The notes under the pieces were generated by a model, which saw nothing but the letters and a program-made list of their open reading frames with translations, was not told the DNA's origin and made no database searches. Below, one piece after another: positions 749-18,491 of a stretch of DNA of 20,000 bases. A program made the translations under genes and the position numbers. Source of the DNA: an uncultured virus (IMG/VR IMGVR_UViG_3300032328_000910) (Duplodnaviria > Heunggongvirae > Uroviricota > Caudoviricetes > Crassvirales); IMG/VR virus record IMGVR_UViG_3300032328_000910; one strand, 5' to 3'. The first letter of the stretch is position 1. Each line of letters opens with the position of its first letter.

Positions 749-779
749 TACCCTGCACATCACAGTGTAGGGTATTTTT
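749..779 (+). terminator. Rho-independent terminator
   Basis: TACCCTGCAC-ATCACA-GTGTAGGGTA followed by TTTTT. Confidence 0.85.
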
Positions 780-814: not shown

Positions 815-951
815 TGTACACAGCGCAGACCCAATCTAAACGTAGGGTCGAACCATAAACTTAACCGACTACTAAGTATTGATGTACACAGCGGTAACGA
901 GTGGTATAACCATAACGTTAACCACCTACTAAGGTTTGCGAGCAAACAGCG
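815..951 (+). repeat. Degenerate direct repeats
   Basis: TGTACACAGCG at 815-825 and 883-893. AACCATAAACTTAACCGACTACTAAG (851-876) vs AACCATAACGTTAACCACCTACTAAG (908-933), 22/26 identical. Confidence 0.8.
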
Positions 952-1245
952 CGGTGCGAACGCTACGCTATGTATTTGCGCAGCAGGGTAAATTATTCTC
1001 GGCAGCTAAATTTGGATGAAACTGTTTATTATATTATATGTCAAGTTGTGCTTGGTTGCGCAGCTCTATATATTATACTATATGGTTGTAGTTCTATCTA
1101 TGGTCGCGCAGCTAATACTAAATAATTTACAGCTTCGCATCCACATTGTCGTCATTAAGCTATACATAGTAGGCATATCAGTCATTGTACAGATACTATG
1201 CCTAACAATGCAAAGCCAAATGTAAAAGACAATTTAGATAGGATT

Positions 1246-1272
1246 TTAGGTAAAATATTAGGTAAAATATTA
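1246..1272 (+). repeat. 12-bp tandem repeat TTAGGTAAAATA x2.25
   Basis: Read directly from the sequence. Confidence 0.9.
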
Positions 1273-1318
1273 AGCCGTAGGATTGATTATTGTATTAAGG
1301 TAATAGGTAATTAGAGTG

Positions 1319-1360
1319 TAGGTGTTGCGCTGCGCGTAGCTCTTCGAGCTACTCCACCTA
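1319..1360. other. Nested hairpin at the centre of the composition switch
   Basis: GTAGCTC-TTC-GAGCTAC (1336-1352; C-GAA-G loop on the minus strand) inside an outer TAGGTG/CACCTA pair. GCGC-T-GCGC at 1327-1335. Confidence 0.8.
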
Positions 1361-1578
1361 TTTCTACAAATCTCAAGCCTACCACACATAATAATATAAC
1401 CTAAACTCAATCTAAACCTAAACATCTACTCAATTCTAACAACTACAATCCTCAAAAACTTAACAATATAAGTGTCTAAACAACTACACTTATAACAATC
1501 GCCTGCAATCCAAACTCTACAATTCCAACACTTAATAACTACGCTCTTAATCCTACTAACTCTTAAAACAACATTCAC

Positions 1579-1794
1579 ATGAATATCCACGAAGCTAAAC
1601 AACAACCTAACGGAACTCTTTTTAAACAACCAAACCACACTACAATTTGGATGGTTCGTAATGATAATCTAATAGCAATAGTTAATGGTACAGTTGACTT
1701 TGCTAATTTTGAATTAGAAATCATTAAAGATGTACCACCATCTGAACATAAACCTGAAAGTACATATATTACTTCACTTAGACTTTGGTTATAA
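1579..1794 (+). CDS. Small hypothetical protein, paralog of the N-terminus of 2571-2909
   Basis: Shared motif PxGTLFxQP..TTIW; A-rich leader. Confidence 0.75.
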   Translation: MNIHEAKQQPNGTLFKQPNHTTIWMVRNDNLIAIVNGTVDFANFELEIIKDVPPSEHKPESTYITSLRLWL

Positions 1795-1795
1795 C

Positions 1796-2569
1796 ATGAT
1801 TAACGAACAACTCGAAGCTGCTGTATTAGCTCTTAGAAAAGAGTACAATAAGCACATTACATTCGTAGATGATAATACATACAGCGAAATAATGGAAAAC
1901 TTAATTAAAGTTTCAAATCTTATTACCAGTAATGACGAAACTAACATCGAAATTGCATTCATGCTTATGCAGCAAGTATTACCCGACAATGTAAATGACG
2001 CAATAGCTGAGATTGTAAATACTCAACTAATACACAATCGTTACGAAGATAAAACATTACTTATTGCCACTGATAACTACCAAAACCAATGGCACGATGA
2101 ATATTCATTTAAAGGGTTTATGAAACATGATGTGTATCAATCTCCAATTCCTTTTATTCAAATAGAACTTAGCCATACAAGCTATCAAGCTAAATGTTTT
2201 AAAAAGAATGGTAAAGATATGGGTATAATTCGATTTGACAGTTACACTGTAATCTCCATGCAAATCTTCTTCAAGATTGGAGAATATAACTACGCTGAGT
2301 TCGAACTATACTATCCAATTGTTTATCATTTTAATTGCCAAACTCACGGAAAAGATGAACCTCGACTTACAGATGAGATATTCTCTTCTGCTGCAAGTTG
2401 TCAATTACAAACTGATATTAGACAAGCTATAACTGTTGTAACTAACCAAGTAGGTAAGATTAAAGATATTGACATCAAAGTCCTACCATTTAGTTATGAC
2501 ATTGCAGGTAACACCAGCAAACTTGAACCCTATACACTCGAAATCTTAAACCAAATAACACTCTACTAA
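1796..2569 (+). CDS. Hypothetical phage protein
   Basis: Long ORF. The ATG at 1796 (TAA-C-ATG junction) is preferred over the 1730 start, which overlaps the upstream gene. Confidence 0.75.
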   Translation: MINEQLEAAVLALRKEYNKHITFVDDNTYSEIMENLIKVSNLITSNDETNIEIAFMLMQQVLPDNVNDAIAEIVNTQLIHNRYEDKTLLIATDNYQNQWHDEYSFKGFMKHDVYQSPIPFIQIELSHTSYQAKCFKKNGKDMGIIRFDSYTVISMQIFFKIGEYNYAEFELYYPIVYHFNCQTHGKDEPRLTDEIFSSAASCQLQTDIRQAITVVTNQVGKIKDIDIKVLPFSYDIAGNTSKLEPYTLEILNQITLY

Positions 2570-2570
2570 C

Positions 2571-2909
2571 ATGAACAGATTAAAAGCACAGAAAGAACCA
2601 ATTGGCACTCTATTTATGCAACCAGGTGGTTATACCACTATATGGGTAAATACAAACCAAGGACTATATGTCTTTGAAGGCGGAACAACAGGAAATCTCA
2701 ATGATTACCATATTGTTACAATGGACGAACTTACATTGCACATTAAAGATATACTAGAATCTGAATATATTACTACAGGTATTAAGTTAAGTATCATTAA
2801 TTGGCAAAATGCACTTAAACTTAAAGAAGCGTTTAAAGAAGGTGATGAATTGTACTATGAAGCTATTACTAAACTTATCACTTACGATGTAAATGCCGAA
2901 AACAAATAA
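2571..2909 (+). CDS. Hypothetical protein, paralog of 1579-1794
   Basis: MNRLKAQKEPIGTLFMQPGGYTTIW matches MNIHEAKQQPNGTLFKQPNHTTIW; TAA-C-ATG junction. Confidence 0.75.
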   Translation: MNRLKAQKEPIGTLFMQPGGYTTIWVNTNQGLYVFEGGTTGNLNDYHIVTMDELTLHIKDILESEYITTGIKLSIINWQNALKLKEAFKEGDELYYEAITKLITYDVNAENK

Positions 2910-2917
2910 TTAAGAAT

Positions 2918-2966
2918 TAAGCTGTTAAACAGCTTATATATCAAATATTATTTGTATCTTTACAGT
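2918..2966 (+). promoter_or_regulatory. Putative Bacteroidota-like promoter (-7 box variant TATCTTTA) with an upstream 19-bp palindrome
   Basis: TATCTTTACAGT at 2955-2966 is identical to 14858-14869. TAAGCTGTT-A-AACAGCTTA at 2918-2936 covers the expected -33 region. Confidence 0.5.
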
Positions 2967-2974
2967 CCAACAAC

Positions 2975-3026
2975 CGGAAAAGTAGCCAAATTAAGGGCAG
3001 AAACCCCGATTTTAGCTACTTTTTCG
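2975..3026 (+). other. Long stem-loop in the predicted 5' leader (attenuator or small RNA candidate)
   Basis: CGGAAAAGTAGC (2975-2986) pairs with GCTACTTTTTCG (3015-3026); inner GGG/CCC stem. Confidence 0.55.
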
Positions 3027-3102
3027 CTAAAGTGAACACTTACTATTAACCAACGGCGGAAAGCTTTAAAACGGCTATTCCCTGTAATAAAGAACTGGCA
3101 AT

Positions 3103-3549
3103 ATGGGCTATTTTATTGAATCCCTTACAGACAAAACTAACAATATAACTAAGACTGTAACTAAGTCTAAAGTTAAATTTTTAGAAGAACTAACTGAAGA
3201 AGTTGAACGTAAACCTCGTACTACATACAAACGTATGCGAGAAGTTATTACATTTCAACTCCCTTTTATTACAGGGAAACAGCGAGATACACTAACCAAA
3301 GTACGCAACTTTCCAACAGTGACTAAAACTATCAGCCACCGTAACAACGTACTTATTATTGAAAAGCTCATTCAAGATGAAAAAATTGAATGTCTATTTA
3401 ATGATTTAGCTAAACCTCGCATTACAGTTGGTCAAAATGGTTACTGCATCGACTACGACATTATTGTAATTACAGTTCGCTTTGTAGGTACTGATAAACA
3501 AATCAGTATTAGTCACAATGGAGAACTAATATTGCGGTCAAAACCCTGA
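3103..3549 (+). CDS. Hypothetical basic protein
   Basis: 148-aa ORF sharing an RTTYK motif with the next gene. Confidence 0.7.
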   Translation: MGYFIESLTDKTNNITKTVTKSKVKFLEELTEEVERKPRTTYKRMREVITFQLPFITGKQRDTLTKVRNFPTVTKTISHRNNVLIIEKLIQDEKIECLFNDLAKPRITVGQNGYCIDYDIIVITVRFVGTDKQISISHNGELILRSKP

Positions 3550-3572
3550 AATTCTTATATATTAGGGGCTTA

Positions 3573-3677
3573 TAAGTCGTTGATAATCAATAAGTTACGA
3601 CCGATTTTTTCCGTCCTGCGCGGAAAATTTGCACGCGCTACGCGGAAAAACCCGACCACGAACCGTTATTTAATAAC
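3573..3677. promoter_or_regulatory. Cluster of candidate protein-binding sites (iteron- or operator-like) upstream of the RepL-like gene
   Basis: Imperfect palindrome TAAGTCGTTGAT-A-ATCAATAAGTTA (3573-3597). CT(G/A)CGCGGAAAA at 3616-3627 and 3638-3649 (22-bp period). Inverted TTTTCCG at 3607-3613. GTTATT-T-AATAAC at 3665-3677. Confidence 0.5.
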
Positions 3678-3693
3678 CAACATAATACTGTAA

Positions 3694-4191
3694 GTGAAGA
3701 AAACAATCAACCCCAGCTTACTAATCTACTTACATAATCAAGACAATCTAATTGGTGATGCAATTAAACCTGTATCTAAGATTAAGACTAATAGCTTACC
3801 TGCTGAAATAGCTAATGAAATTTCAGAAGAACAGCTTGAAGCTTGGAAGTGTAAGGCTCGTACTACATATAAGACACAGTTTGTCTACGAGTTTACAGAT
3901 TATCCGTACCGCGTACTTAATGAACTTGGTATGAAAGCTTATGGGTTTATTAAACATCATAAGCTTAAATTCCATAGTGACGAGTTTACGCTTAGCATTG
4001 AAGACATTATGACCGAACTATCTATAAAGAAGACAGCAGCCTACAATGTAATTAAGCATCTACTTGATGCAAAGATTATATTTAAGACTGATTACAAAGA
4101 TGTATTTTATATCAATGTGCTGATAGTCTTTAAAGGTAACATAAAGAGGTTGTTAGATACCAAATTAAGTAATGATAAATTAATCCGCTAA
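3694..4191 (+). CDS. RepL-like (plasmid replication protein family) winged helix-turn-helix protein
   Basis: C-terminal HTH-wing pattern LSIEDIMTELSIKKTAAYNVIKHLLDAKII...FYINVLIVFKGN resembles the RepL Y-x-I-N-P-x-x-x-F-K-G end. GTG start. Confidence 0.65.
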   Translation: MKKTINPSLLIYLHNQDNLIGDAIKPVSKIKTNSLPAEIANEISEEQLEAWKCKARTTYKTQFVYEFTDYPYRVLNELGMKAYGFIKHHKLKFHSDEFTLSIEDIMTELSIKKTAAYNVIKHLLDAKIIFKTDYKDVFYINVLIVFKGNIKRLLDTKLSNDKLIR

Positions 4192-4675: not shown

Positions 4676-5083
4676 GTGAATACGCTTATAACTCTTTTAA
4701 GCCAAAGAAGTCAAAAAGCAAATAAGGTTCTCGGTGCATGGTATAATGAACGACAGTTTACATTACCATTTACTGACTTTCTTATGCTTGACAATGTACA
4801 CCTACAAGTAGGAGTCTTTAAGCAATTCTTTATTAGTCGATATAACGTCGACATAGAGTATTCGCATAGAGGTTATTCTATTGCAGCTGCTCAACAGCTA
4901 AGTAAATATGAAGATGACTTCCGTTATAATAAACGTGACGGAGTTTACTATATTGAATATAACTATTCAATTCTAAGTACTGCACCTGATGATTATCTCA
5001 CTTCAATTGAGAAAGAAACTGAATATTGGCTTATTAAAAGCGTGTTGTCCGCAATGGAGTGGATAGATGCTGGAATTACATAA
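4676..5083 (+). CDS. Hypothetical phage protein
   Basis: 135-aa ORF with a GTG start, tightly packed between neighbours. Confidence 0.7.
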   Translation: MNTLITLLSQRSQKANKVLGAWYNERQFTLPFTDFLMLDNVHLQVGVFKQFFISRYNVDIEYSHRGYSIAAAQQLSKYEDDFRYNKRDGVYYIEYNYSILSTAPDDYLTSIEKETEYWLIKSVLSAMEWIDAGIT

Positions 5084-5093
5084 CACAATAAAA

Positions 5094-6686
5094 ATGGACT
5101 TTAATAAACTTCTTGACGACAAAAAAGCTCTTGAACTTCAACAACCTAATCAGCTATCTGCTGATGAAGTTGAAGAAGAGATAGATGCCATTCAGCTAAA
5201 CGAATGTCAAGAACTTGCAGTTCAAGATATAGTCGGTTGGGCTTACACTAAAGGTGGTAGCTCATGGACTCTATCAGGTGCTGCCGGTACAGGCAAAACA
5301 TTTGTTACTAATGTTATTCTTAAACAAATCCGACAAAGTGCTATATGTGTTAGTGCACCTACGCATAAGGCTAAAAAAATAGTTGGAGATGTTACAGGGT
5401 ATCATGCTGAAACCCTACAAGCTCTATTAGGTCTTGCACCTAATCAAGACGTTGAAGATTTTGACATCAATCGCGCTAAGTTTGACCAAAAGAACAAAGC
5501 AAAGATTAAAAACTACAGCTTCATAGTAATAGATGAAGCCTCGATGATAGGTAAGGACTTGTTCAACCTATTAATGAAAGAAGCTAAGGAATGTGGGTGC
5601 AAGATTCTATTTGTAGGTGACCACATACAACTACCGCCTATTGGTGAAGAGATAAGTCCTGTATTTATCCCTAATCAAACAGCTGGTATTAGTGTTCTTA
5701 AGACACCTGCAAGACAGAAACCAAGTAATCCTGCAAGTATGCTACTGATAGCATTAAGAATAGATATAGATATAGCTCAAGCTAATAATCTATTTCCATA
5801 TCTTGAGATTGCTATTCTATTGTTTGGCGGTAATAATACAGATGTACTCAATGCTCGTAATGCAATTCGCGGTCATGGTGTATTTCGCACTCTAATCAAT
5901 CGTTTTCCTGAATTATGGAATAACGGTGAAGGATACAAACGATTTACAGATGCGGTTGATTTTGCAGATGCGATAAAAGAACTGTACAGTAATGTAAATC
6001 CAAGTGATTTTGATTATATTAAAATGCTCGCTTTCACTAATAAGCGTGTAAGTGAATATAATCGCGCTCTTAGAGATATTGTACTGAAGAACCCTGAAAA
6101 GCCGATAGTAGTTGGAGATATTCTTATTTCTTATACTACCATTAGTAAGTACCCTGAAAAATCGAATGTAGTTGTAAACTCTGAAGAATATACAGTTGTA
6201 TCTGTCGAAGAGTTTGAAACTTCATTTGGTATTGACGTATTTGCTGTTGGTATGGAAACTGATAAAGGTGTCCGTACTGACATTAATATAGTCAAAGAAG
6301 AGGCGTATAAGCTCTTCAATATGACTCATAATGTGTGGCTTGATAGAGGAAAAACTAAACGTGATTGGGTAGGTTACTATAAGTTCAAACATGGACATTT
6401 AGTTATGGATAGTCTTAACGACATCTTTAAGACTAAAGACCTGCCTAAGAAAGATGTTGATTACAACTATGCTCTTACAGTGCATAAATCGCAAGGGTCT
6501 ACATATACCCATGCTTGTATTGATGGAAATAACATACGCGAAGCCTACACCTTTGCTAAGTCAGCTAAAGAAATGGAAGGTGGATGGACTGAAAAAGAAG
6601 AGCTTAATGCTCGCCTCTTTACACTTCGACTTATGTATGTAGCATTTAGTCGTGCTAAAGAGAGTGTTAGAATCATATTATCATAA
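5094..6686 (+). CDS. SF1B Dda/RecD-like 5'-3' DNA helicase
   Basis: Motifs GAAGTGKT, APTHKA, IDEASM, GDHIQLPP, AFTNK, YALTVHKSQGSTY, YVAFSRA. Start 5094 avoids overlap with the upstream gene. Confidence 0.92.
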   Translation: MDFNKLLDDKKALELQQPNQLSADEVEEEIDAIQLNECQELAVQDIVGWAYTKGGSSWTLSGAAGTGKTFVTNVILKQIRQSAICVSAPTHKAKKIVGDVTGYHAETLQALLGLAPNQDVEDFDINRAKFDQKNKAKIKNYSFIVIDEASMIGKDLFNLLMKEAKECGCKILFVGDHIQLPPIGEEISPVFIPNQTAGISVLKTPARQKPSNPASMLLIALRIDIDIAQANNLFPYLEIAILLFGGNNTDVLNARNAIRGHGVFRTLINRFPELWNNGEGYKRFTDAVDFADAIKELYSNVNPSDFDYIKMLAFTNKRVSEYNRALRDIVLKNPEKPIVVGDILISYTTISKYPEKSNVVVNSEEYTVVSVEEFETSFGIDVFAVGMETDKGVRTDINIVKEEAYKLFNMTHNVWLDRGKTKRDWVGYYKFKHGHLVMDSLNDIFKTKDLPKKDVDYNYALTVHKSQGSTYTHACIDGNNIREAYTFAKSAKEMEGGWTEKEELNARLFTLRLMYVAFSRAKESVRIILS

Positions 6687-8436: not shown

Positions 8437-9018
8437 ATGAAAACATCGTGGAAAGAAACAATTAAAATAATCCTGTTCTTTATGACATGGGCAGCAACCA
8501 ATGTAAGCATCATTTGGTACACTCATACACATCCACATATTAGTATTGTGGAGAAAGAGAAAATTGTTACTGTTATTGACACTATTGTTAAAACTCAAAT
8601 TGTTTACCGTGATACTTCAGATAGCCAATTTTTTAAGGCTATTCTTGAAATCGAAAGTGGAACTATCACAATGTTTGAAAAAGATAGTACTTATCTCGAC
8701 AAACAAATCTCTGCCGAGCACGGTAGAGGTAAAGGTCACCTTGGCATCTATGAAGTCTGTGTACGTGGTACTGGATTTCATAAGGTATTAGGTTACACTC
8801 ATGATGATATGTTTGAGCTTGAAAAAAGTTCTCATGTATTCTGGGCGATGATGGGTATTTTTGTAGATAGATTTTCACGTAAGTATGGACGTTATCCTAC
8901 ACGTGAAGAACTATCTCGTATGTGGAGCGGTGGTCCAGACGGACATAAAAAGAAATCTACTAAACGTTACGAAACTAAATTTAAAAAACTATATGCTAGT
9001 ATTCGTAACGAACGATAA
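8437..9018 (+). CDS. Lysozyme-like / lytic transglycosylase-fold muralytic enzyme with an N-terminal membrane anchor
   Basis: Hydrophobic IILFFMTWAATNVSIIW segment; catalytic-type ILEIESG; GHLGI; RMWSGGPDG (cf. WNGGP of destabilase/i-type lysozyme-like proteins). Confidence 0.7.
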   Translation: MKTSWKETIKIILFFMTWAATNVSIIWYTHTHPHISIVEKEKIVTVIDTIVKTQIVYRDTSDSQFFKAILEIESGTITMFEKDSTYLDKQISAEHGRGKGHLGIYEVCVRGTGFHKVLGYTHDDMFELEKSSHVFWAMMGIFVDRFSRKYGRYPTREELSRMWSGGPDGHKKKSTKRYETKFKKLYASIRNER

Positions 9019-11620
9019 TAATCGTCATAAATTCAGCGGTATTAACTTAGCTGTCCATCAGTGTAAAACTATGTTTAATGAATTCATTAAAGAAAACAAT
9101 AACGATTTTATTGGCATTGACTTTGAAACTACTGGTCTTGATGCGTTAGTACATCACCCACTACTCATTGCAATTGGTAATGCAAAAGACCAATTTGTAA
9201 TTGATTGTACGACTGTTAATGTCGAACGTTTTTTGGATATGGAAATGAATATGATAAATCATAACTGTAAGTTTGATTTAAAGTATTTTAAAGTACATTA
9301 CCCTGAAGTTCGCATTAAAGAAATCTATGATACTATGATTATGGAACAAAAATTGTTTCAAAATACAAGTCGTAGATTTAGCCTTGATAATCTTGTACTT
9401 AGATATACAGGTGGCGTTCCTGCTGAAATGATAAAAACAACTCGACTTGAATTTGTTAATGCAAATCCGAATACAGTTATTTTTACTGATAAGCAAATTA
9501 ATTATGCCGCTACTGATGTAAAACATCTGCACGATATCAGAGATAAACAAGTTGCAATGGCTAAAAGTAATGGTCAACTCGAATGGATGATGAACGTAGA
9601 GTTCCCACTAATTGAAGTTTTAGCTACAATGGAATTAACAGGTTTTAATCTGGATGTACCTGCGCTTAAAGCTATCATTAAGAAAAATCATCAAATTAAG
9701 TTTGATACTGCCATTGCTTTAGATGAAGAAGTTCGTTATCTACGTGACACGTTGTTGCCTGAAAATGAACGTATCTATCTTAAGCATGGTAAATACGACC
9801 GTGAACGTCGTAATGACGTTAAACCTGAATACGTCGGTTTATTTGGTGAAATGAGTGAGTTTGATTATTTCAAGCCTTCTAAAGCTAAAGTTAAGATTGA
9901 CAAAAAAACTCGCACTGTTAAGTTTGATGATAATATTGGTAATATTAATTGGGGTAGTCCTGATGATATTATGGAAATTTTTGCCAAACTAAAGCAGCCT
10001 CTTCCATTACAGGGAGAGATTGCTAAAAAGTATGGGTATCTTATCCCTGTAATAAAGAATGGTAAACTGCTCAAACATTTAGGTATAAATGCCAATGGTG
10101 AGCAAGTTACAATTACTGGTAGTAGTACTCAAGGAGAAGGTTTTACAATTGGTAAAAAAGCTTTCATAAAATATTTCATTGACAATCCGCATACACCTAT
10201 GCGTAAGTTAATAAAACTACTTGAAACTTATACCAAAGCGAGCCATGAAATTAGTAGCTTTGGTGAAAATTTCATAAACAATCTCAATCCGCGTACAAAT
10301 AGAATCCATACTGCAATTCGTCAATGCGAATCTGTAAATGGACGTTTGCAATCAGGTGGAGGTAAATTGGAAAGCGACAAAGTAAATCTTCAAAACATTC
10401 CACGCTTGAAAGAGTTTAGACAGTTGTTTTATGGTACTAAAGGAAATAGTGTTATCACTTGTGACCTTACTGGTGCTGAAGTTACATTTATGTGTGACAT
10501 GGCAAACGATGAAACTCTATATGAATGGGCTGTTGTAAATGACGATAGTCATAGTCCAATGGTGCAAAATGTATGGCGTACTATATTTGAGTATCGTGCA
10601 GGTCTTGAAGCTGGTTATTGGGAAAACGCGTACAAATTCTTTAACAAGCGTAATAAAGATAACTTTCTAAAGATGCTTTCACACCCCAATGCAGAAGTGC
10701 GTAAACTTGTTGACTTAGCTATTAACTTTAAAGTTAATAAAAAAGAAAACACAGCTTATCGTGTAGCTGGTAAAAATGGTACGTTTGGAGGTATATATGG
10801 AATGAAAGCTCGTAAAGCGCAAGAAACTTTTAACGGTACTGATATTGAGTTAGCTAAAGCTGACCCTAATTTTAAGCCTGTTAATGTTACTCTCGAAGAA
10901 GGAAAGGTTATTTTGTATGCGCAAAAACGTGCTATTCCTAAAACTTTTGCTATGGTTGAACGTAACGTTCAACTTGCATTTAAACAAGGATATCTCGTTC
11001 TTAACGACCGTAGTAATAGCCGTATTTGGTTTGAAGGTGTTATTAATATGTTCAAATTTATTAATTCTGAATATGGCGATAACGTTTCTATTGAATATGA
11101 TGGTAACAACTCATACAATGTTCGAGATAGTGATGACGAATACATTGGTAGTGAAGAACTTGATTGGAATATTGCAAAAGACCTTGATGGTCAAGCTCGT
11201 AATGTTCCGATTAGTGGAACTCAAGCTGATTGTGTCAAAGAAGCTATGGTCATTATAGACAAAGCTATTAAAAGTCATAATCTCACCGATAAATGTTTCT
11301 TACTGTCCCAAGTACACGATGAACTTGTTTACGATTGTCCTAAATACCTCGACGGTCAAAGTCAAGAATGGATTGATAATCGAAATGGTGTCGGGCACGG
11401 TTTTGTTTACAAAGCTGACCCTGATGACGATTTGTACAAAATTGCAGAACAAGGTGGTATTCATATTATAGGAGAACCTTATGACCTTAGTGGTAATAGG
11501 TATCTTGATATGAGTTTCGCTTATTTCATTAAATGTATGCTAATCAAAGCAGCGAATCGTTTCTTAAAGAACGTAAAGATGCAAGCGTCAATCGAGATAC
11601 ATGACACATGGACGAAATAA
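8993..11620 (+). CDS. polA: Family A DNA polymerase with 3'-5' exonuclease and no 5' nuclease domain
   Basis: ExoI DFETTG, ExoII HNCKFD, ExoIII YAATD; NGRLQS, NLQNIP, motif A DLTGAE, motif B RVAGKNGTFGGIYG, motif C QVHDE. Start 8993 preferred over 8885. Confidence 0.95.
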   Translation: MLVFVTNDNNRHKFSGINLAVHQCKTMFNEFIKENNNDFIGIDFETTGLDALVHHPLLIAIGNAKDQFVIDCTTVNVERFLDMEMNMINHNCKFDLKYFKVHYPEVRIKEIYDTMIMEQKLFQNTSRRFSLDNLVLRYTGGVPAEMIKTTRLEFVNANPNTVIFTDKQINYAATDVKHLHDIRDKQVAMAKSNGQLEWMMNVEFPLIEVLATMELTGFNLDVPALKAIIKKNHQIKFDTAIALDEEVRYLRDTLLPENERIYLKHGKYDRERRNDVKPEYVGLFGEMSEFDYFKPSKAKVKIDKKTRTVKFDDNIGNINWGSPDDIMEIFAKLKQPLPLQGEIAKKYGYLIPVIKNGKLLKHLGINANGEQVTITGSSTQGEGFTIGKKAFIKYFIDNPHTPMRKLIKLLETYTKASHEISSFGENFINNLNPRTNRIHTAIRQCESVNGRLQSGGGKLESDKVNLQNIPRLKEFRQLFYGTKGNSVITCDLTGAEVTFMCDMANDETLYEWAVVNDDSHSPMVQNVWRTIFEYRAGLEAGYWENAYKFFNKRNKDNFLKMLSHPNAEVRKLVDLAINFKVNKKENTAYRVAGKNGTFGGIYGMKARKAQETFNGTDIELAKADPNFKPVNVTLEEGKVILYAQKRAIPKTFAMVERNVQLAFKQGYLVLNDRSNSRIWFEGVINMFKFINSEYGDNVSIEYDGNNSYNVRDSDDEYIGSEELDWNIAKDLDGQARNVPISGTQADCVKEAMVIIDKAIKSHNLTDKCFLLSQVHDELVYDCPKYLDGQSQEWIDNRNGVGHGFVYKADPDDDLYKIAEQGGIHIIGEPYDLSGNRYLDMSFAYFIKCMLIKAANRFLKNVKMQASIEIHDTWTK

Positions 11621-11634
11621 AAATTGTTTAAAAT

Positions 11635-13077
11635 ATGGAAAAAACTGAAAGACAAAGTATAGGTGCTAATAAGTGGCGTGATAATAAAGGTAAAGGACTT
11701 GTAGTTCAACCTACGGGTTTTGGAAAAACTATCGGAACGATACGCCAAATTGTAGTCCCTATGCTACAAAAAGCACCCTACAAGATTTTAATATTAGTGC
11801 ATCGTACTAAGTTATTAGAACAATGGAAAAGTCGCTTAGACGCGGAAATAAGCCCTAAATTTCGGGGCATGGTTCGCGTTGAAACGGTGCAATGGTATAT
11901 AACTAATAATGCTATTGATGCTGTTGATTTACTTGTAGTTGATGAAATACATAAGTTTTACAGTGAAGATTACATTGAATATATTAATGGTAATAAAATT
12001 AAGTTTAAGTTTAATCTTGGACTTACAGCTACGCCATACGACAAATATAAACGATGGAAACTACTTGAAACTATATATCCGATTGTCGATGAAATTACAC
12101 AAGAAGAAGCTATCCGCGAAGGTTGGGTTAGTAACTTCATTGAGTTTAATGTTCCTGTCGCTCTGACAGATGAAGAAATTGAATTGTACAAAGAAGCTGT
12201 TGAAACTGTAGTTGCTGGAGAGTCTAAATTTGACTGTCAAGGTAAATTAGCTATCGACCGTGCTACTAAAGTACTGTACGGTGGCGAAAATAACGAAGGC
12301 GTTCGAGTTACAGGTATCGCATGGGCGACTATGTGGGCTAAGTATAAAGGTTGGAATGCAGAACTCGCTAAAGATGACCCTATTAATCAGCTTTGGAATC
12401 CGCATAAAATTATAGGATATGCCAAGATGATTTTTACAGGGTACAGAGATAGAGATGCTATTCTTAACCATTGTAAATCTAAATACGAAGCTACGATAGC
12501 ATTGCTAAGAAAGTTTAAAGACTTGAAAGCGATGTGTTTCTCTGAAAGTACCGTCTTTGCAGACGACCTTAAAGATAAATATCGCAGGCAATACCAAGAT
12601 GATAAAATGGTTGTATACCATTCTCAGCTTCCATCTACCTATATGAAAGATAGTTTAGGTAACTGGATTACTTACAAAACAGGTAAGAAAGCCGGAGAGC
12701 GTAAGCTATTTGGTAATACTACAATAAAAGAAGCTGTAATGTCGCAGTTTCTTAGTAACGAAGCAAGAATACTTAGTACTGCGCGTATCCTCGATGAAGG
12801 ATTTGATTGTGAAGATATTCGACTTGGTATTATTACAAGTAGAACATCTAATTATAATCAACAAACTCAAAGAGGTGGGCGTATAAAACGAATAATCCCT
12901 ACCACACCGAAGGACGTAATGATGATAGTAAATTTGTACGTGGCAAACACAGAGGATGAACGCAGGCTCAATCAAGCCCAATCCCAATATACCCATAGGG
13001 TTATACCCGTACAAAGTGTTGAAAACGTTAATTTCGATGCGATTGGTGATGATGAAATATCTAATAACGATTTATAA
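11635..13077 (+). CDS. Superfamily 2 DExH helicase (UvsW/XPB/SSL2-like)
   Basis: PTGFGKT, VDEIH, GLTAT, ILDEGFD, QRGGR. Confidence 0.9.
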   Translation: MEKTERQSIGANKWRDNKGKGLVVQPTGFGKTIGTIRQIVVPMLQKAPYKILILVHRTKLLEQWKSRLDAEISPKFRGMVRVETVQWYITNNAIDAVDLLVVDEIHKFYSEDYIEYINGNKIKFKFNLGLTATPYDKYKRWKLLETIYPIVDEITQEEAIREGWVSNFIEFNVPVALTDEEIELYKEAVETVVAGESKFDCQGKLAIDRATKVLYGGENNEGVRVTGIAWATMWAKYKGWNAELAKDDPINQLWNPHKIIGYAKMIFTGYRDRDAILNHCKSKYEATIALLRKFKDLKAMCFSESTVFADDLKDKYRRQYQDDKMVVYHSQLPSTYMKDSLGNWITYKTGKKAGERKLFGNTTIKEAVMSQFLSNEARILSTARILDEGFDCEDIRLGIITSRTSNYNQQTQRGGRIKRIIPTTPKDVMMIVNLYVANTEDERRLNQAQSQYTHRVIPVQSVENVNFDAIGDDEISNNDL

Positions 13078-13085
13078 ATCTCACT

Positions 13086-13634
13086 ATGTTTATCAATGTT
13101 AATGAGTATGTAAAATTCCTCACAAAGCACAAGTTGACGCCGGGGCAGTTCCTCGCGTTGTACCTACTACACATTAAGAAACCTAAACTTATTACCGCAT
13201 ATAGAGATGCGTTAGGTGCTAGTGTTATCAGTCCCGAAGAAAAAGACGACCTGTTTAAACGTGGTTATATGATTGAGGAAAGGAATAATATTCGTGTTAC
13301 TGAAAAGTTTAGCATGGAATTTATAAGTAACTACGACGCTGCTAATGAAGCGTGGGATGCTTATCCTGCGTATTCTATTAGTAACGGTAATACTTATCCT
13401 CTGAAGAATATGAGCATAACTGTATTTGCTGATTTGTATGAAAAAGTTCATAAAGGCGTTCCAGACGAGCATCATCAATTCGTTGAAGATGTAAAGTATG
13501 GCGTTATGCAAGGACTTATTAAAGTCAAGCTATTTAACTTTATGGAAAGCCGTGCGTGGGTAGATTTACGTAAAATGCGTAATACTGCTAATGGGGGCGA
13601 TACTCAATCAAAACCAAGTCACAATGAGTTTTAG
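13086..13634 (+). CDS. Putative helicase loader or replication initiator-like protein
   Basis: N-terminal HTH-like segment (KLTPGQFLALYLL), WDAYP motif like the FWxxYP of phage replication proteins, and overlap with the DnaB start. Function is inferred from position. Confidence 0.5.
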   Translation: MFINVNEYVKFLTKHKLTPGQFLALYLLHIKKPKLITAYRDALGASVISPEEKDDLFKRGYMIEERNNIRVTEKFSMEFISNYDAANEAWDAYPAYSISNGNTYPLKNMSITVFADLYEKVHKGVPDEHHQFVEDVKYGVMQGLIKVKLFNFMESRAWVDLRKMRNTANGGDTQSKPSHNEF

Positions 13635-14790
13635 AGATTTTAGTGCAAAGCTAATCCAAACGCGTTCAGCAATAGAGTCTGCAAAACAGATGATATTAGA
13701 TGAACGTAGTGGTGAACAATTAGGTCTATATAGTCCTTGGCATAAGTTTAATCGTGCAATGCTAAAGTATTGTAGATTTAACCAAGTGACTATGATTGCA
13801 GGTATGAGTGGAAGTGGTAAAAGTTTTATATTGAATATGATACGTCAAGCATTTCTCGACTATGAAGATTGGGCTATCGAAGATAGTGACAATATATATC
13901 TTGGTCGTGAAGTGATTGATTTATATTACTCGAAAAAAACTGACAGTTACATTCCCTGTAATAAAGAAGAAGGGAACGCCTTATTGTTTCCTGAATCTGG
14001 ACTTATTAGACGTAATGATGACGATTATCTACATCATAGAGCTGTGAATAGAAATTGTAAGTTTAATACAGTTCTCGTTCACTTTGGCTATGAAATGTCC
14101 CCCGAAGATGAATTGCTTAGAAGTGCATCTACCATTATGGGTGCAAGTTTCGGTTATATTATGAGTAGTGAAATAGTTGAAGGTGAAAATAGTTCACAAG
14201 CGTACAACCGAATAACTGACAGTGAATATCAAACTATTAGTAACATTCTTGATACTTTTGATAACAGAAAGGAATATTATGTTCCAATCTCCCTTAACAT
14301 TCAAGAGATGAAGAAAGTAGTTGAATATGTCGCTGAAGTTAATCCTACCGCTAAGATTATTATTACACTTGACCATACACTTCTTAGTAAGAAACTGGAT
14401 GAAAAAGATGATATGGAACTGCAAGCAGCGATAGCTGAAGTTGTACTTGAGCTTAGACAACGATATGGTGCTCTAATTATTATTCTGAATCAATTGAATC
14501 AAAATATAGAACGCCCTGAACGTAGAGAAAAGCCTGTACTTCATTATCCTGTTAAAAGTGATATTCATCTTGGTGCTCAAATTTGGTGGGCGTGTGACAA
14601 TGTATTTGTATTTCATAGACCTAAACTACTTGGTATTATGGAATACGGTCCAGAAAAACTAAAGACTGATAAGCTCATTCATTGTGCAGCTATTAAATCA
14701 CGTCGTGGTAGAACTGGAGATATCTTCTTTGAAGAAGACTTTATACATGGTCGTATGCATGAACGTGCTGCTATTGATTTTCGCAAATAA
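13624..14790 (+). CDS. dnaB: DnaB-like replicative helicase (SF4 ATPase domain)
   Basis: H1 IAGMSGSGKS, H1a FGYEMS, H2 TLDH, H3 LNQLNQ, H4 SDI...DNVFVFHRP, arginine finger IKSRRG. Confidence 0.9.
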   Translation: MSFRDFSAKLIQTRSAIESAKQMILDERSGEQLGLYSPWHKFNRAMLKYCRFNQVTMIAGMSGSGKSFILNMIRQAFLDYEDWAIEDSDNIYLGREVIDLYYSKKTDSYIPCNKEEGNALLFPESGLIRRNDDDYLHHRAVNRNCKFNTVLVHFGYEMSPEDELLRSASTIMGASFGYIMSSEIVEGENSSQAYNRITDSEYQTISNILDTFDNRKEYYVPISLNIQEMKKVVEYVAEVNPTAKIIITLDHTLLSKKLDEKDDMELQAAIAEVVLELRQRYGALIIILNQLNQNIERPERREKPVLHYPVKSDIHLGAQIWWACDNVFVFHRPKLLGIMEYGPEKLKTDKLIHCAAIKSRRGRTGDIFFEEDFIHGRMHERAAIDFRK

Positions 14791-14834
14791 TGCAAATAAT
14801 TTTCAATTTGTAGCTAAAATAAAAGATGCTATAT

Positions 14835-14869
14835 TTTGATATTTAGAACATTTTATCTATCTTTACAGT
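14835..14869 (+). promoter_or_regulatory. Bacteroidota sigma-type promoter TTTG-N19-TATCTTTA, probably giving a leaderless mRNA
   Basis: TTTG at 14835-14838, 19-nt spacer, TATCTTTA at 14858-14865 (consensus TTTG-N19-21-TAnnTTTG), ATG at 14870. Confidence 0.6.
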
Positions 14870-15715
14870 ATGGAATTAAAGGAACAAAAAGAATTAACAA
14901 CGGCAAATCAATACGGAGTTCAAAGCATTGAACGTATGTTTGAAATTGCAGAACACCTTGTTAAATCGCAAATGTGTCCATTTAAAAAACCCGAAGACGT
15001 TGTGCTTGTTATGCAAGCTGGTAACGAACTTGGTATTGGATATATACAAGCGATTGGCAACCTTTATCCAATCAACGGTAGGGTTACAATGGGTGTTCAC
15101 CTACGCAGCGCACTTATAGGTGCAGAAAAGAACATTAGTATTAGTGTAATTGAAGACTTTGTTAAAGTTTATTACTTTAAAGCTAAAGGTGGTTACGAGT
15201 TAGAACTCACTGCTGACGAGCTTAAAGAAGGTATTCTTAATGACAAATATCAAATCATTACAGTTGATACTCTACCTGCCGATTATGTTGCAAGTAAAAT
15301 TCAACTATTTAAGATTGATGCGCCGTATATGCCTACCGATATGGATGACAGGCGAACTACGATTGAGTTTAATCTTAAAGACAAAGGAATTAAGGAACGA
15401 GTTACTTATTATCTTCATGAAGCAGTTCAAGCTGGACTTCCGGTTAATAATCCTAATACATGGGTAAAATACACCAGAGCTATGGTCTACAAAAGCTGTT
15501 TCAATCGTGGTAGTGATAGATATTGTTCTAACATTCTCAAAGGTATTAAAGATACGGGCGAGATGTTAGATGCGACTAAAGCTACTTACGGGATTGATGA
15601 TAATGGAGAAGTTGTTTCTGTAAATGGTAAACCATTCAAAGTTGCGGATGATATGGCTGATTTCAGTTATGAAGACGTTACTGATGATAAAGATACTAAC
15701 CTTGGGGAAGGTTGA
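14870..15715 (+). CDS. RecT/Red-beta-like single-strand annealing protein
   Basis: LVKSQMCP..KPED......GNELGI...QAI..LYPINGR and WVKYTRAM match the RecT-family pattern; acidic tail. Confidence 0.75.
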   Translation: MELKEQKELTTANQYGVQSIERMFEIAEHLVKSQMCPFKKPEDVVLVMQAGNELGIGYIQAIGNLYPINGRVTMGVHLRSALIGAEKNISISVIEDFVKVYYFKAKGGYELELTADELKEGILNDKYQIITVDTLPADYVASKIQLFKIDAPYMPTDMDDRRTTIEFNLKDKGIKERVTYYLHEAVQAGLPVNNPNTWVKYTRAMVYKSCFNRGSDRYCSNILKGIKDTGEMLDATKATYGIDDNGEVVSVNGKPFKVADDMADFSYEDVTDDKDTNLGEG

Positions 15716-15733: not shown

Positions 15734-15767
15734 GGCGGCAGTCGTAAGCCATGCGGCTGCCGTTTTT
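15734..15767 (+). terminator. Rho-independent terminator
   Basis: GGCGGCAGTCGTA-AGCCA-TGCGGCTGCCGTT followed by a T run. Confidence 0.85.
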
Positions 15768-17375: not shown

Positions 17376-18491
17376 ATGAAGAAAAATTATATGTTACCCG
17401 ACCTAACTAAATCTTACATTCTCGATAATGTTAGTCAAGAAGATATATTTGCAGCTTATTTTGATGTTTCGCTTGCAGATATTGAATATTGTATTAGTAA
17501 AGGCAAGTTAATAGGAAGCGCGGTACGTAGCGTTGACGAGCGTCCGAGTATGGGCTTTACTAAACGTGCAGATGGAAAAATTGTTTGTCGTGATTTCGGT
17601 GGTTATTTTTGGGGTGATTGCTTCGATGCAGCTGCATTTGCACTTAATGCTGATGTTAAAAATAGCAGAGAGTTTATGCTTTTGCTTGTACATATAGCTA
17701 AAACCTTTAGAATACATGAATATACCGATGGACATACTTTTAAGAATGTGATTAAGACTACAACTAATTATATACCGCAAGGTAAAATTAGTCCTGTATT
17801 TGAGTTTAAGTTCCGAGATTGGGATGTGAATGACGGAAAGTATTGGTACAATAAGTATGGGATTACAAGAGCTATTCTTGAAGCCCATAGTGTTTACGCA
17901 ATACAAATACTATGGGTTAACGGTAAGATTGTCTATACGTATCGTAATACTGACCCTGCATATGGTTACTATCTTGGTCAGATTGGTGACTTACTTATTT
18001 GGAAAATATATTTTCCTTATAGGAAAGAGTATAGATTTATGACTAATGGTTCTCTAATTCAAGGTGGGAAACTGCTTAGAGAAGTTGAACATGGTGTAGT
18101 AATTAAGTCACTTAAAGACGTGATGCAATTAGCTGTATTCGCAGACACTATTTCTTTACAGGGAATTGCGCCTGCGAGTGAAACTATGATTCTAAATAGA
18201 GAACAATTTACTTATGTTGAAACATATTGGAAAGAGAATATATATACATTTAGTGATTTCGACCTCACTGGAGTTAGATTTGGAAGTGAAATGAGAAGGC
18301 GGTATAAAACTCGCCCTCTTTATCTCACTAATGGTCGATTTAACACTATTAATTTTCAAGCAAAAGATATAAGTGATTATGTAAGTAAGTTTGGTTTAAT
18401 ACAAGCCGAGAAGCTTATACTTCAATTTATAGAAGTTGGTGAAAATATAATAGACGATTGGGATTTTATTGTTAACGAACTTAAACATTAA
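17376..18491 (+). CDS. DnaG-type (TOPRIM) DNA primase of crAss-like type
   Basis: SAVRSVDERPSMGF / RDFGG..GDCFD N-terminal domain, WKIYFP, IKSLKDVM, APASE, DxD motif DFD, KDISDY. Confidence 0.85.
   Translation: MKKNYMLPDLTKSYILDNVSQEDIFAAYFDVSLADIEYCISKGKLIGSAVRSVDERPSMGFTKRADGKIVCRDFGGYFWGDCFDAAAFALNADVKNSREFMLLLVHIAKTFRIHEYTDGHTFKNVIKTTTNYIPQGKISPVFEFKFRDWDVNDGKYWYNKYGITRAILEAHSVYAIQILWVNGKIVYTYRNTDPAYGYYLGQIGDLLIWKIYFPYRKEYRFMTNGSLIQGGKLLREVEHGVVIKSLKDVMQLAVFADTISLQGIAPASETMILNREQFTYVETYWKENIYTFSDFDLTGVRFGSEMRRRYKTRPLYLTNGRFNTINFQAKDISDYVSKFGLIQAEKLILQFIEVGENIIDDWDFIVNELKH

Follow-up and report, generated by a model that had tools for sequence, protein, structure and literature searches.

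Comparative sequence evidence for a two-armed, strand-polarised non-coding element at the head of the replication genes of crAss-like phages

Organisation of the locus

We analysed a 20,000-nt stretch of phage DNA (the window), which corresponds to the replication block of a distant member of the crAss-like phages. The most abundant phages of the human gut belong to Crassvirales. The features surrounding the region of interest, 1231-1578, are collected in Table 1.

Table 1 Features of the element and its surroundings, in window coordinates.
Feature	Position	Strand	Description
Intrinsic terminator of gene 162-728	749-774	+	followed by a T-run and TAATCGGCTT
43-nt direct repeat, two copies	839-881, 896-938	+	74% identical, starts 57 nt apart
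T[T/C]GCGCAGC, three direct copies	976, 1056, 1104 (976-1112)	+	A+T-rich sequence after each
38-codon ORF	1198-1314	+	spans most of the left arm
Left arm	1231-1335		C-poor on the + strand
Fourth GCGCAGC, inverted	1329-1335	-	directly abuts the hairpin
Central hairpin	1336-1352	+	7-bp stem, 3-nt loop, GTAGCTC-TTC-GAGCTAC
Right arm	1353-1578	+	non-coding on substitution pattern, G-depleted, C/A-rich, ends at ATG 1579
Second small hairpin	1467-1494	+	9-bp stem inside the right arm, uses 2 of the tract's 6 G
First downstream gene	1579-1794	+	71 aa, paralogue of 2571-2909
Rival origin site	3606-3650		17-nt inverted repeat plus CT[G/A]CGCGGAAAA twice, within the gap that immediately precedes the RepL-like gene
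RepL-like winged-helix replication initiator candidate	3694-4191	+	165 aa, 2.1 kb downstream

A scan for intrinsic terminators listed 104-129, 749-774 and 1044-1065, and the first two have the tail of T-run and TAATCGGCTT in common. TAG serves as the stop codon of the plus-strand gene ending at 83. The sister variant of the phage carries an indel at the 43-nt direct repeats (839-938), and the region of the three T[T/C]GCGCAGC copies is 97.5% identical to the sister phage. GCGCAGC occurs four times in the window, always within 978-1335, against about 0.4 occurrences expected by arithmetic from base frequencies. We regard the longer direct copies as candidate iterons, operators or promoter parts; by their sequence the GCGCAGC copies could be initiator-binding repeats and equally promoter or operator parts. 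Treated as one structured RNA, the upstream region 791-1200 gave a z of -0.13, a sigma-70-type promoter scan returned 14 sites where 13.5 were expected, and searches for Rfam families and for tRNAs yielded no relevant hit and no tRNA, respectively.

The central hairpin has no T-run after it and is not listed by the terminator scan. Compared with the sister phage L080, 1305-1352 holds a single difference in 48 nt, at 1352, which produces a G-U pair on the + strand only. In the second hairpin, an A to G change at 1471 in the sister phage likewise produces a G-U pair on the + strand only. Both substitutions thus keep the stems paired as RNA, which would favour an RNA function, if weakly, since only two events are involved.

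Further downstream lies the RepL-like gene. RepL (PF05732) was matched by 6 of 14 aligned sequences, comprising the protein of ORF 3694-4191 and 13 HMMER relatives (best E 1.1e-8); the protein itself gave no Pfam RepL match at E of 1 or less. A language-model search with the same protein found RepL in 21 of the 30 nearest clusters (score 0.95). At 11 loci of related phages, none of 85 ORFs between the element and the helicase matched RepL at E of 0.01 or less.

Strand composition and folding

The first-pass annotation had described a mirror-image switch in strand composition centred on the hairpin, and our recount bears this out, with both sides at the extremes of the window. The lowest-C 94-mer is 1231-1324 (A35 T34 G23 C2; the mean C of 94-mers is 15.3). 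To the right, 1351-1578 contains A95 C67 T60 G6, the lowest-G 228-mer begins at 1349 (mean G 43.1), and the longest G-free run in the window is the 94 nt of 1378-1471. The nine TAG trinucleotides of 1231-1350, six of them as TAGG, agree with the earlier count, as do the two C to the left, the six G to the right and the sequences that enclose the hairpin, TAGGTG (1319-1324) and CACCTA (1355-1360); the CTA count of 1351-1578 came to 15, however, and not to about 16. TAG and CTA are about twofold in excess of mononucleotide shuffles (p 0.004 and 0.003). This excess disappears in the window under dinucleotide-preserving shuffles (p 0.086 for TAG and 0.24 for CTA), and the enrichment is explained by dinucleotide content.

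Weak folding of each arm is restricted to the strand that runs 5' to 3' outward from the hairpin, which is the strand geometry that had been proposed. As + strand RNA, the 226-nt right arm is predicted to fold at -7.0 kcal/mol (window mean -47.2, sd 8.6) and all 330 other windows of 226 nt fold better; as - strand RNA it is ordinary at -34.6 kcal/mol. The left arm is G-poor on the - strand because it is C-poor on the + strand, and only when transcribed from the - strand is its predicted fold weak (-5.5 kcal/mol, 1.4th percentile). In a nearest-neighbour profile of duplex stability, the left arm is the 4th-5th least stable site at 40-80 bp and no site is conspicuous at 150 bp; the tract has average stability (z 0.1-1.5).

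Coding status of the two arms

Comparison with the sister phage shows, by the pattern of substitution, that the right arm is non-coding. The 41 substitutions relative to L080 are spread 14/14/13 over the three codon phases, and no + strand ORF of 20 codons or more lies between 1314 and 1579. A minus-strand frame does run through the tract at 1270-1638, as 70+51 codons with one TAG here and as 112 open codons in L080. We rejected it as a gene since the substitutions are phase-neutral; in addition, one Cys of a CxxC-like pair, read from the translations, is replaced by Phe in L080.

The right arm is 81.6% identical to L080 and 961-1352 is 97-98% identical, and the composition of the tract is kept as its sequence changes (A95 C67 T57 G7 in L080). 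A new G arises in only 4 of the 41 changes, and transitions are found at 4 of the 95 A sites but at 19 of the 127 pyrimidine sites (Fisher p 0.013, right arm against L080). This substitution pattern shows selection keeping G out of the right arm while the sequence drifts.

In both variants of the phage, the tract leads directly into the ATG of the first gene, whichever that gene is. In the window this is the gene at 1579, the first ~60 nt of whose coding region are still G-poor. That gene is absent from the sister variant, where the tract of L080, and of contigs from runs X2 and X4, directly joins the homologue of 1796-2569. The junction point is a CACATGA/AACATGA microhomology at the two start codons. 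G depletion ahead of start codons is general in the window, with 10.1% G at -30 to -1 of 25 genes against 19% overall, and no Shine-Dalgarno motif is found upstream of these 25 genes.

The left arm is less uniform. The first 25 codons of ORF 1198-1314 are kept in the sister phage and three of four differences are synonymous; to the left of the hairpin, the commoner sister variant has the end of a 77-codon ORF. No PHROG family was found for any of the small + strand ORFs (1198-1314, and L080 542-673 and 630-863). A 12-nt tandem, TTAGGTAAAATA, encodes Leu-Gly-Lys-Ile twice and supplies two of the six TAGGs. The left arms of crAss002, cr127_1 and L158 are clearly non-coding, with 0-1 C in 90 nt, and those of L152 and L154 are weak (G-C 9-12 in 90 nt). 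We also considered the arms as one long inverted repeat and rejected this, because arm-to-arm inverted similarity exceeds composition only in L158 (z 4.7), L155 (z 4.1) and the window (z 2.7); eight other loci score z 1.8 or less.

Recurrence in crAss-like phages

The first-pass annotation had suggested that relatives be searched for the same architecture, and this search was positive. The polarity of C-poor arm, hairpin and G-poor arm is the top switch in 13 of 27 dereplicated helicase loci, and the opposite polarity passes in one of 27. Cultured crAss002, which infects Bacteroides xylanisolvens and is the one whole genome scanned, carries the element at record position ~90,347, between gp79 and gp78. 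There it is the unique top switch of the genome (z 6.6, against 4.2 for the next), lies 2 kb into the replication block and has three same-strand genes upstream; the slope of the cumulative GC skew changes nearby, at ~89.25 kb. Among 15 related loci, the G-poor arm comes within ~60 nt of the next + strand start, or runs past it, in 8, and tract length in relatives ranges from 82 to 847 nt.

When positions were chosen by the right arm only, the left arm showed a skew of z 2.3 or more in 8 of 11 lineages. This test comprised lineages with a right-arm tract of z at least 4.5 and counted L152 and L154 apart; in L142 and L144 there is overlap between the right-arm tract and a 97-99-aa ORF, and the 11 include L135/L096, whose left arm is formed by the coding end of an ORF of 281-285 aa. 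The central 71-mer beats 94% or more of random 71-mers from its own locus in folding at 11 of 15 loci.

No 7-mer or 8-mer is common to 14 elements beyond the null expectation, and CTA/TAG enrichment is absent in six of nine lineages tested. Just 3' of the hairpin, CTACAAATC is found in L080 and L107 as well as in the window, and L156 has four copies; we discarded it as a wider signature, as a gapped pattern built from it matched only four unrelated sequences of viral_contigs. DNA searches of the phage collection with the window region, L158 and L156 found no relatives, nor did searches of viral_contigs with the hairpin core and the polymerase. In Cellulophaga phage phi14:2, the one crAss-like phage with mapped early transcripts, no switch exceeds z 3.2 in the first 12 kb, and its long gaps have normal G content. 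A genome end or terminal repeat was rejected: the available part of one source reports crAss002 as headful-packaged (PMC8042965), so the element is no fixed end there.

Compared across these loci, 1231-1578 is one example of a non-coding element that crAss-like phages conserve, two-armed and strand-polarised, at the head of the early/replication gene block. As aligned here, it is conserved in architecture and not in sequence. We found no description of it in the literature searched.

Interpretation of the element

We favour, tentatively and as something just short of probable, a reading in which the element acts as RNA, as a leader or landing pad. Transcription running rightward from the conserved upstream region 960-1200 would cross the stem-loop and then enter a 226-nt untranslated tract essentially without G. 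RNA without G forms neither G-C nor G-U pairs, and therefore the message would be naked to beyond the first start codon and could offer a place to land to machines that require single-stranded RNA. Two such machines are plausible, and we give them roughly equal weight. One is the 30S/S1 ribosome, for which the tract would provide standby and entry in a Shine-Dalgarno-less, Bacteroidota-type host; the other is the terminator Rho, plausible because the tract is C-rich, G-poor and untranslated. The hairpin would mark, and may protect, the 5' boundary of the tract. We infer the rightward transcription of the tract, the identity of the landing machine and the role of the left arm.

All + strand genes to the right of the tract need transcription from the left. 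Host-type promoter boxes (consensus TTTG / TAnnTTTG) contain G, so that a G-free tract cannot hold them. Rut regions form part of Rho-dependent terminators and leader attenuators, such as lambda tR1. The right arm is rut-like in being long, untranslated, C-rich, G-poor and nearly unstructured, and in lying between a small ORF with a stem-loop and delayed genes, a layout that resembles cro-nutR-tR1-replication genes of lambda. It also exceeds the 60-80 nt or more of C-rich, G-poor, unstructured and untranslated RNA by which rut sites are recognised. However, it is two to three times longer than typical and has a mirrored partner on the other strand, and, unlike in lambda, no antiterminator is identified here.

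The ribosomal alternative draws on Bacteroidota starts that lack a Shine-Dalgarno motif. In the available part of one study, initiation in Bacteroidetes is described as tuned by mRNA structure, with G-poor, A-rich, structure-free sequence before the start codon (PMC6847099). The general G depletion before starts in the window fits such tuning, and the tract resembles these starts. That bias spans a few tens of nucleotides, whereas the tract has 226 nt, begins behind a hairpin and is paired with a mirrored arm.

Several observations count against the leader. The left arm is left unexplained, being structure-free on the - strand with no leftward gene here. Ribosome access needs ~30-40 nt, and thus a tract of 226 nt (82-847 nt in relatives) asks for more. 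A leader that is naked and C-rich would expose the genes behind it to silencing by Rho, the uniqueness of the element in crAss002 would fit an origin or a single early promoter equally well, and the first 12 kb of phi14:2 lack such a switch.

The first-pass annotation had read the locus as a bidirectional replication origin with CTA as primase signal. Its geometry, and its recurrence in relatives, stood; the specific origin and primase reading did not fare as well, and we consider an origin unlikely. In an origin, the hairpin would be the centre, the two outward G-free strands would be lagging-strand templates of two diverging forks and unfolded loading tracks for DnaB-like helicase and DnaG-like primase, and the upstream GCGCAGC would bind the initiator. 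The strand-symmetric architecture suits this, each arm being structure-free exactly on its outward 5' to 3' strand, as does the presence of a left arm where no leftward gene exists. The element heads the replication block of a phage that encodes DnaB-like, primase and RepL-like proteins, and all four GCGCAGC copies lie beside it, one inverted against the hairpin. Its placement is like that of Ori-Finder predictions for p-crAssphage and a zeta crAss-like phage, as given in the available parts of two reports (PMC10983915, PMC12386605). The unique top switch of crAss002 likewise lies near the change in cumulative GC-skew slope, but this skew evidence is confounded by gene orientation.

The proposed priming signal fell away, because CTA and TAG do not exceed dinucleotide content here and their enrichment is missing from six of nine lineages. 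There is no outstanding easily melted zone, the tract having average duplex stability, and the tie of the right arm to start codons is not required of an origin. The commoner variant tolerates a gene insertion of 245 nt that separates the hairpin from the repeats. An origin of RepL type is expected to lie within the gene or next to it, for example in P1, according to the accessible text of one report (PMC10983915), but here four genes and 2.1 kb separate the element from the RepL-like gene, whose own upstream gap carries repeats.

Paired, oppositely oriented single-strand initiation signals exist in IncQ oriV (ssiA/ssiB), and there are also G4-type priming hairpins. The locus is like these in offering repeats, then a palindrome, with a candidate outward priming or loading signal on each strand; unlike them, it has no conserved priming motif and is tied to a start codon. 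The alternative that the first-pass annotation itself had named, back-to-back G-poor, C-rich RNA landing tracts facing outward, fits at least as well as an origin. The element looks more like an unfoldable early-gene leader RNA than a proven replication origin.

The element may alternatively be a hairpin promoter for the injected virion RNA polymerase, which we hold to be quite unlikely. Here the palindrome would extrude and expose single strands, and an ssDNA-dependent, crAss-type virion polymerase would start outward on both strands and make divergent G-free transcripts, by the logic of N4 with an unrelated enzyme. Put more generally, and with the same low likelihood, hairpin or cruciform and two G-free outward strands would form a strand-symmetric single-strand entry site serving as a virion-polymerase early promoter, one that would be defined by architecture and composition and not by sequence. 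N4-type promoters have a 5-7 bp stem, a 3-nt loop and a purine at the template-strand loop centre. The hairpin here, with its 7-bp stem, 3-nt loop and bottom-strand loop GAA, has this form, and, like the N4 promoters, precedes early genes, in phages whose group injects a polymerase with a preference for ssDNA. Unlike in N4, relatives carry a crAss-type polymerase of another enzyme family, unrelated to that of N4; and N4 promoters have conserved flanks, whereas no motif is common to the lineages here.

A promoter of this kind would account for both arms and for the first-gene junction. It agrees with the unusually good folding of the central 71-mer at 11 of 15 loci, with the lack of a k-mer common to lineages beyond chance, and with the uniqueness of the element in crAss002, whose genome encodes a large virion polymerase. 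The early transcripts of phi14:2 have no common upstream motif in the available part of the transcript study (bioRxiv 10.1101/2020.03.07.982082), and thus architecture without sequence conservation would fit. On the other hand, the first 12 kb of phi14:2 itself are free of the element, crAss002 has three same-strand genes upstream of it, no virion polymerase gene is visible within the window, and the conserved small ORF 1198-1314 suggests that transcription already crosses the hairpin. That part of the study also describes abundant, rightward early non-coding RNAs from the long gaps of phi14:2 (bioRxiv 10.1101/2020.03.07.982082). The tract resembles these gaps as a long gene-free stretch at the start of a crAss-like early region, but the gaps have normal G content and no polarity switch.

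Very unlikely, finally, is the absence of any unitary element, with the right arm a long leader, the left arm a purine-rich small-gene end or remnant and the mirror coincidental: the overlap of the left arm with the 38-codon ORF, the 77-codon ORF end in the commoner variant, the two TAGGs from the TTAGGTAAAATA tandem and the weak left arms of L152 and L154 would suit it, but the polarity tops 13 of 27 clusters against one opposite, the left arms of crAss002, cr127_1 and L158 are non-coding, and left-arm skew holds in 8 of 11 lineages at positions set by the right arm alone.

The element bears on two questions, the start site of DNA replication in Crassvirales and the way in which the injected virion RNA polymerase is directed to the early genes. 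Since it is present in cultured crAss002, the leader, origin and promoter readings are separable by RNA-end and marker-frequency experiments. It also matters for annotation, as gene callers put tiny spurious minus-strand ORFs in such tracts, for example in cr127_1.

A composition switch at the head of a replication block

The window comes from a distant member of the crAss-like phages and constitutes its replication block. All sizeable genes of the window lie on the + strand, in the gene order of Bacteroides phage crAss002, and its polymerase and primase are 22–27% and 27–34% identical, respectively, to those of crAss-like phages of Bacteroides and gut metagenomes. The regions upstream of 25 window genes are G-poor (10.1% vs 19%) and contain no Shine-Dalgarno motifs, as expected for a Bacteroidota host (excerpts of PMC6847099). 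GC skew is negative (C>G) over 1001–4000, which includes the + strand genes of 1579–3549, and differs in the rest of the window.

Features of the 850-nt gap and replication genes of the window
Feature	Coordinates	Strand
Terminator	749–774	
43-nt direct repeat, 2 copies, 74% identical, starts 57 nt apart	839–938	
T[T/C]GCGCAGC, three direct copies	976, 1056, 1104	
38-codon ORF	1198–1314	
Fourth GCGCAGC copy, inverted, adjoining the hairpin	1329–1335	
G-poor tract, ending at the ATG at 1579	to 1578	
Dda-like helicase	5067–6686	+
Family-A DNA polymerase	8885–11620	+
SF2 helicase	11635–13077	+
DnaB-like ATPase (weak call)	13591–14790	+
RecT-like protein	14870–15715	+
DnaG-like primase	17376–18491	+

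The element sits in an 850-nt gap (729–1578) and comprises a left arm, a hairpin and a G-poor right arm, the tract. The hairpin, GTAGCTC-TTC-GAGCTAC at 1336–1352, is flanked by TAGGTG and CACCTA. Base counts bear out the first-pass annotation, which had centred a switch in strand composition here: 1231–1324 holds 2 C in 94 nt and is the lowest-C 94-mer of the window, and 1351–1578 holds 6 G in 228 nt, the window's lowest-G 228-mer beginning at 1349. The longest G-free run spans 1378–1471. The nine or so TAG trinucleotides described left of the hairpin number exactly nine (six as TAGG), and 15 CTA were counted to the right, one short of the estimate. Within the 20 kb, GCGCAGC is confined to its four copies (976–1335), all kept in L080, a metagenome contig of a sister phage; the motif belongs to this lineage alone. 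The 43-nt repeat had no match in Rfam, and its region in L080 (~190–260) carries a 24-nt deletion and a 22–33-nt insertion.

In predicted folds, the 226-nt tract reaches −7.0 kcal/mol as + strand RNA, a weaker fold than in any of the other 330 windows of 226 nt (mean −47.2, sd 8.6); its − strand RNA is unexceptional (−34.6). The left arm gives −5.5 as − strand RNA (1.4th percentile) and an ordinary −17.3 as + strand RNA. Thus, each arm is predicted to be structure-free only on the strand running 5′ to 3′ outward from the hairpin, the strand geometry initially proposed. Both L080 substitutions within predicted stems (1352, 1471) leave a G-U pair, and do so on the + strand alone, a weak signal from two events.

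The architecture recurs in related phages

We scanned loci around Dda-like helicase homologues for the strongest C-poor to G-poor switch. Of 55 such loci, 43 extend 4 kb or more beyond the helicase on its upstream side, and dereplication of these gave 27 clusters. Four thresholds, fixed after inspection of the data, were applied: z ≥4.5, left G−C ≥12 over 90 nt, right C−G ≥20 over 150 nt, and a position 2.9–8.6 kb upstream of the helicase. The top switch of the locus passes all four in 13 of the 27 clusters, or 12 without a p-crAssphage-like cluster that has a coding left arm and only 2 passing members out of 10. A switch of opposite polarity clears these thresholds in 1 of 27, so the expectation that relatives share the architecture was upheld. 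Several of the 14 failing clusters are contigs >300 kb.

Among the carriers are crAss002 (Intestiviridae) and cr127_1 (Crevaviridae). In the full 93,030-bp genome of crAss002, no other switch scores as high as the one at 90,347 (z 6.6, against 4.2 for the runner-up), which lies in the 944-nt gp79–gp78 gap, 2 kb inside the replication block. The left arms of crAss002, cr127_1 and a further lineage (L158) are non-coding, with 0–1 C in 90 nt. The central 71-mer beats at least 94% of random 71-mers from its own locus in fold at 11 of 15 loci, and the right arm extends to within about 60 nt of the next + strand start, or beyond it, at 8 of 15. Arm lengths range among lineages from 26 to 369 nt (left) and from 82 to 847 nt (right), inverted-repeat similarity between the arms is seen at sequence level in some lineages only, and no k-mers are common to the lineages beyond chance. 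Conservation is at the level of architecture and composition rather than sequence. The element was not found in the first 12 kb of phi14:2, a Cellulophaga crAss-like phage.

Several local features accompany these loci. Four annotated − strand 'hypothetical proteins' of 29–37 aa within the G-free right arm of cr127_1 (L162, NC_055886; 3228–3740) are probably spurious calls. Another lineage (L156) has a ~20-nt motif ending CCTACAAATCAA in four + strand copies, of which the G-poor arm and the following gap have two each (2650–2730, 3540–3590), and a single TTGCGCAGC at 3396. Downstream of the element in the crAss002 locus (L161), two near-perfect palindromes on TTAGGATTT / AAATCCTAA lie ~180 nt apart (2775–2795 and 2955–2975).

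Variation in a sister phage

L080 covers the element region at 83–94% DNA identity. Positions 961–1352 are 97–98% identical and the tract only 81.6% (41 substitutions), its composition unchanged (A95 C67 T57 G7). Only 4 of the 41 changes produce a new G, their codon phases are spread 14/14/13, and transitions are rarer at A sites (4/95) than at pyrimidine sites (19/127; Fisher p 0.013). The tract is therefore non-coding, with selection against G and a sequence otherwise free to drift.

Two indels distinguish the forms. Between 1273 and 1305, L080 carries an insertion of 245 nt that includes a 77-codon ORF (L080 617–863). L080 also lacks the 71-aa gene at 1579–1794 (joint 1576/1794), so that its tract is fused to the next gene's ATG; this joint lies inside a CACATGA/AACATGA microhomology at both start codons. 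The 77-codon ORF occurs only in the L080-type variant and the 71-aa gene only in the window form. The window form is represented by one 81,191-nt contig, possibly the window's own source, and the L080-type form is the commoner variant, present in contigs from three runs with a freshwater metagenome label. Of these three, X2 has both L080 joints, X3 the 1273/1305 insertion only and X4 the 1576/1794 joint only. The hairpin and tract thus behave as a cassette leading whichever gene is first. The 71-aa gene is a paralogue of another small early gene, 2571–2909; the two have DNA repeats D5 and D6 and a motif at the N-terminus in common.

A possible RNA leader and its alternatives

Our leading interpretation, held at slightly less than even confidence, is that the message includes the tract as an unfoldable leader headed by the hairpin, with a role at the RNA level. 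Transcription of the genes right of the element must come from the left, and host-type promoter boxes contain G, which a G-free tract cannot supply; the tract therefore most likely lies within the message. Such a leader would lengthen to 226 nt the G-poor, structure-free start regions of the window genes and would be, by composition, an ideal Rho-loading site. It would serve ribosome standby or Rho loading, two roles of roughly equal likelihood. The element is akin to G-poor leaders lacking Shine-Dalgarno motifs and to rut-like tracts, but differs from both in its unexplained mirrored arm. As the leader does not account for the left arm, two strand-symmetric readings stay alive.

The first of these, a bidirectional replication origin with CTA-rich lagging-strand templates for DnaB and primase, was favoured by the first-pass annotation and now seems rather unlikely. 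The element is strand-symmetric, has a left arm without a leftward gene, is unique in crAss002 (the one whole genome scanned), heads the replication block and lies close to the GCGCAGC cluster; Ori-Finder origins of p-crAssphage and a zeta crAss-like phage are likewise placed at the replication-block head (excerpts of PMC10983915, PMC12386605). However, the CTA/TAG excess, advanced as a primase signal, amounts to ~2-fold when shuffles preserve mononucleotide content alone, disappears once they preserve dinucleotides and is missing in 6 of 9 lineages. Furthermore, duplex stability is unremarkable, the tract is bound to start codons, a gene-sized insertion is tolerated between repeats and hairpin, and a candidate RepL-like replication initiator, ORF 3694–4191 (165 aa), has its own repeat-bearing upstream gap. 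The RepL resemblance is seen only via relatives and language-model features: RepL accounts for 21 of the 30 nearest clusters in a language-model search (score 0.95), and Pfam RepL is matched by 6 of 14 aligned sequences (the ORF protein and 13 HMMER relatives; best E 1.1e-8), the ORF protein itself having no Pfam RepL match at E ≤1. In the 144-nt gap before this ORF (3550–3693) lie two 12-nt copies of CT[G/A]CGCGGAAAA and an inverted repeat of 17 nt. Origins of the RepL type are expected to lie within the initiator gene or next to it (P1, as cited in excerpts of PMC10983915), and this gap is a candidate for a more conventional origin.

The second, a hairpin promoter from which an injected, ssDNA-preferring virion polymerase would make divergent G-free RNAs, is quite improbable. 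Its basis is that gp66, the virion RNA polymerase of phi14:2, transcribes single-stranded and not double-stranded M13 DNA, and that its early transcripts are described as having no common motif (excerpts of bioRxiv 10.1101/2020.03.07.982082).

The architecture was not found described in the portions of the literature searched. The presence of the element in crAss002, a cultured phage, makes these readings testable there.

Other putative transcription signals were seen in the window. The stretches 104–145 and 749–790 each contain a strong terminator with an identical TAATCGGCTT tail after it, and a third terminator lies at 15735–15763. The gap before the RecT-like gene contains, at 14806–14840, a good match to the Bacteroidota promoter layout (TTTG, 19 nt, TATATTTTG).
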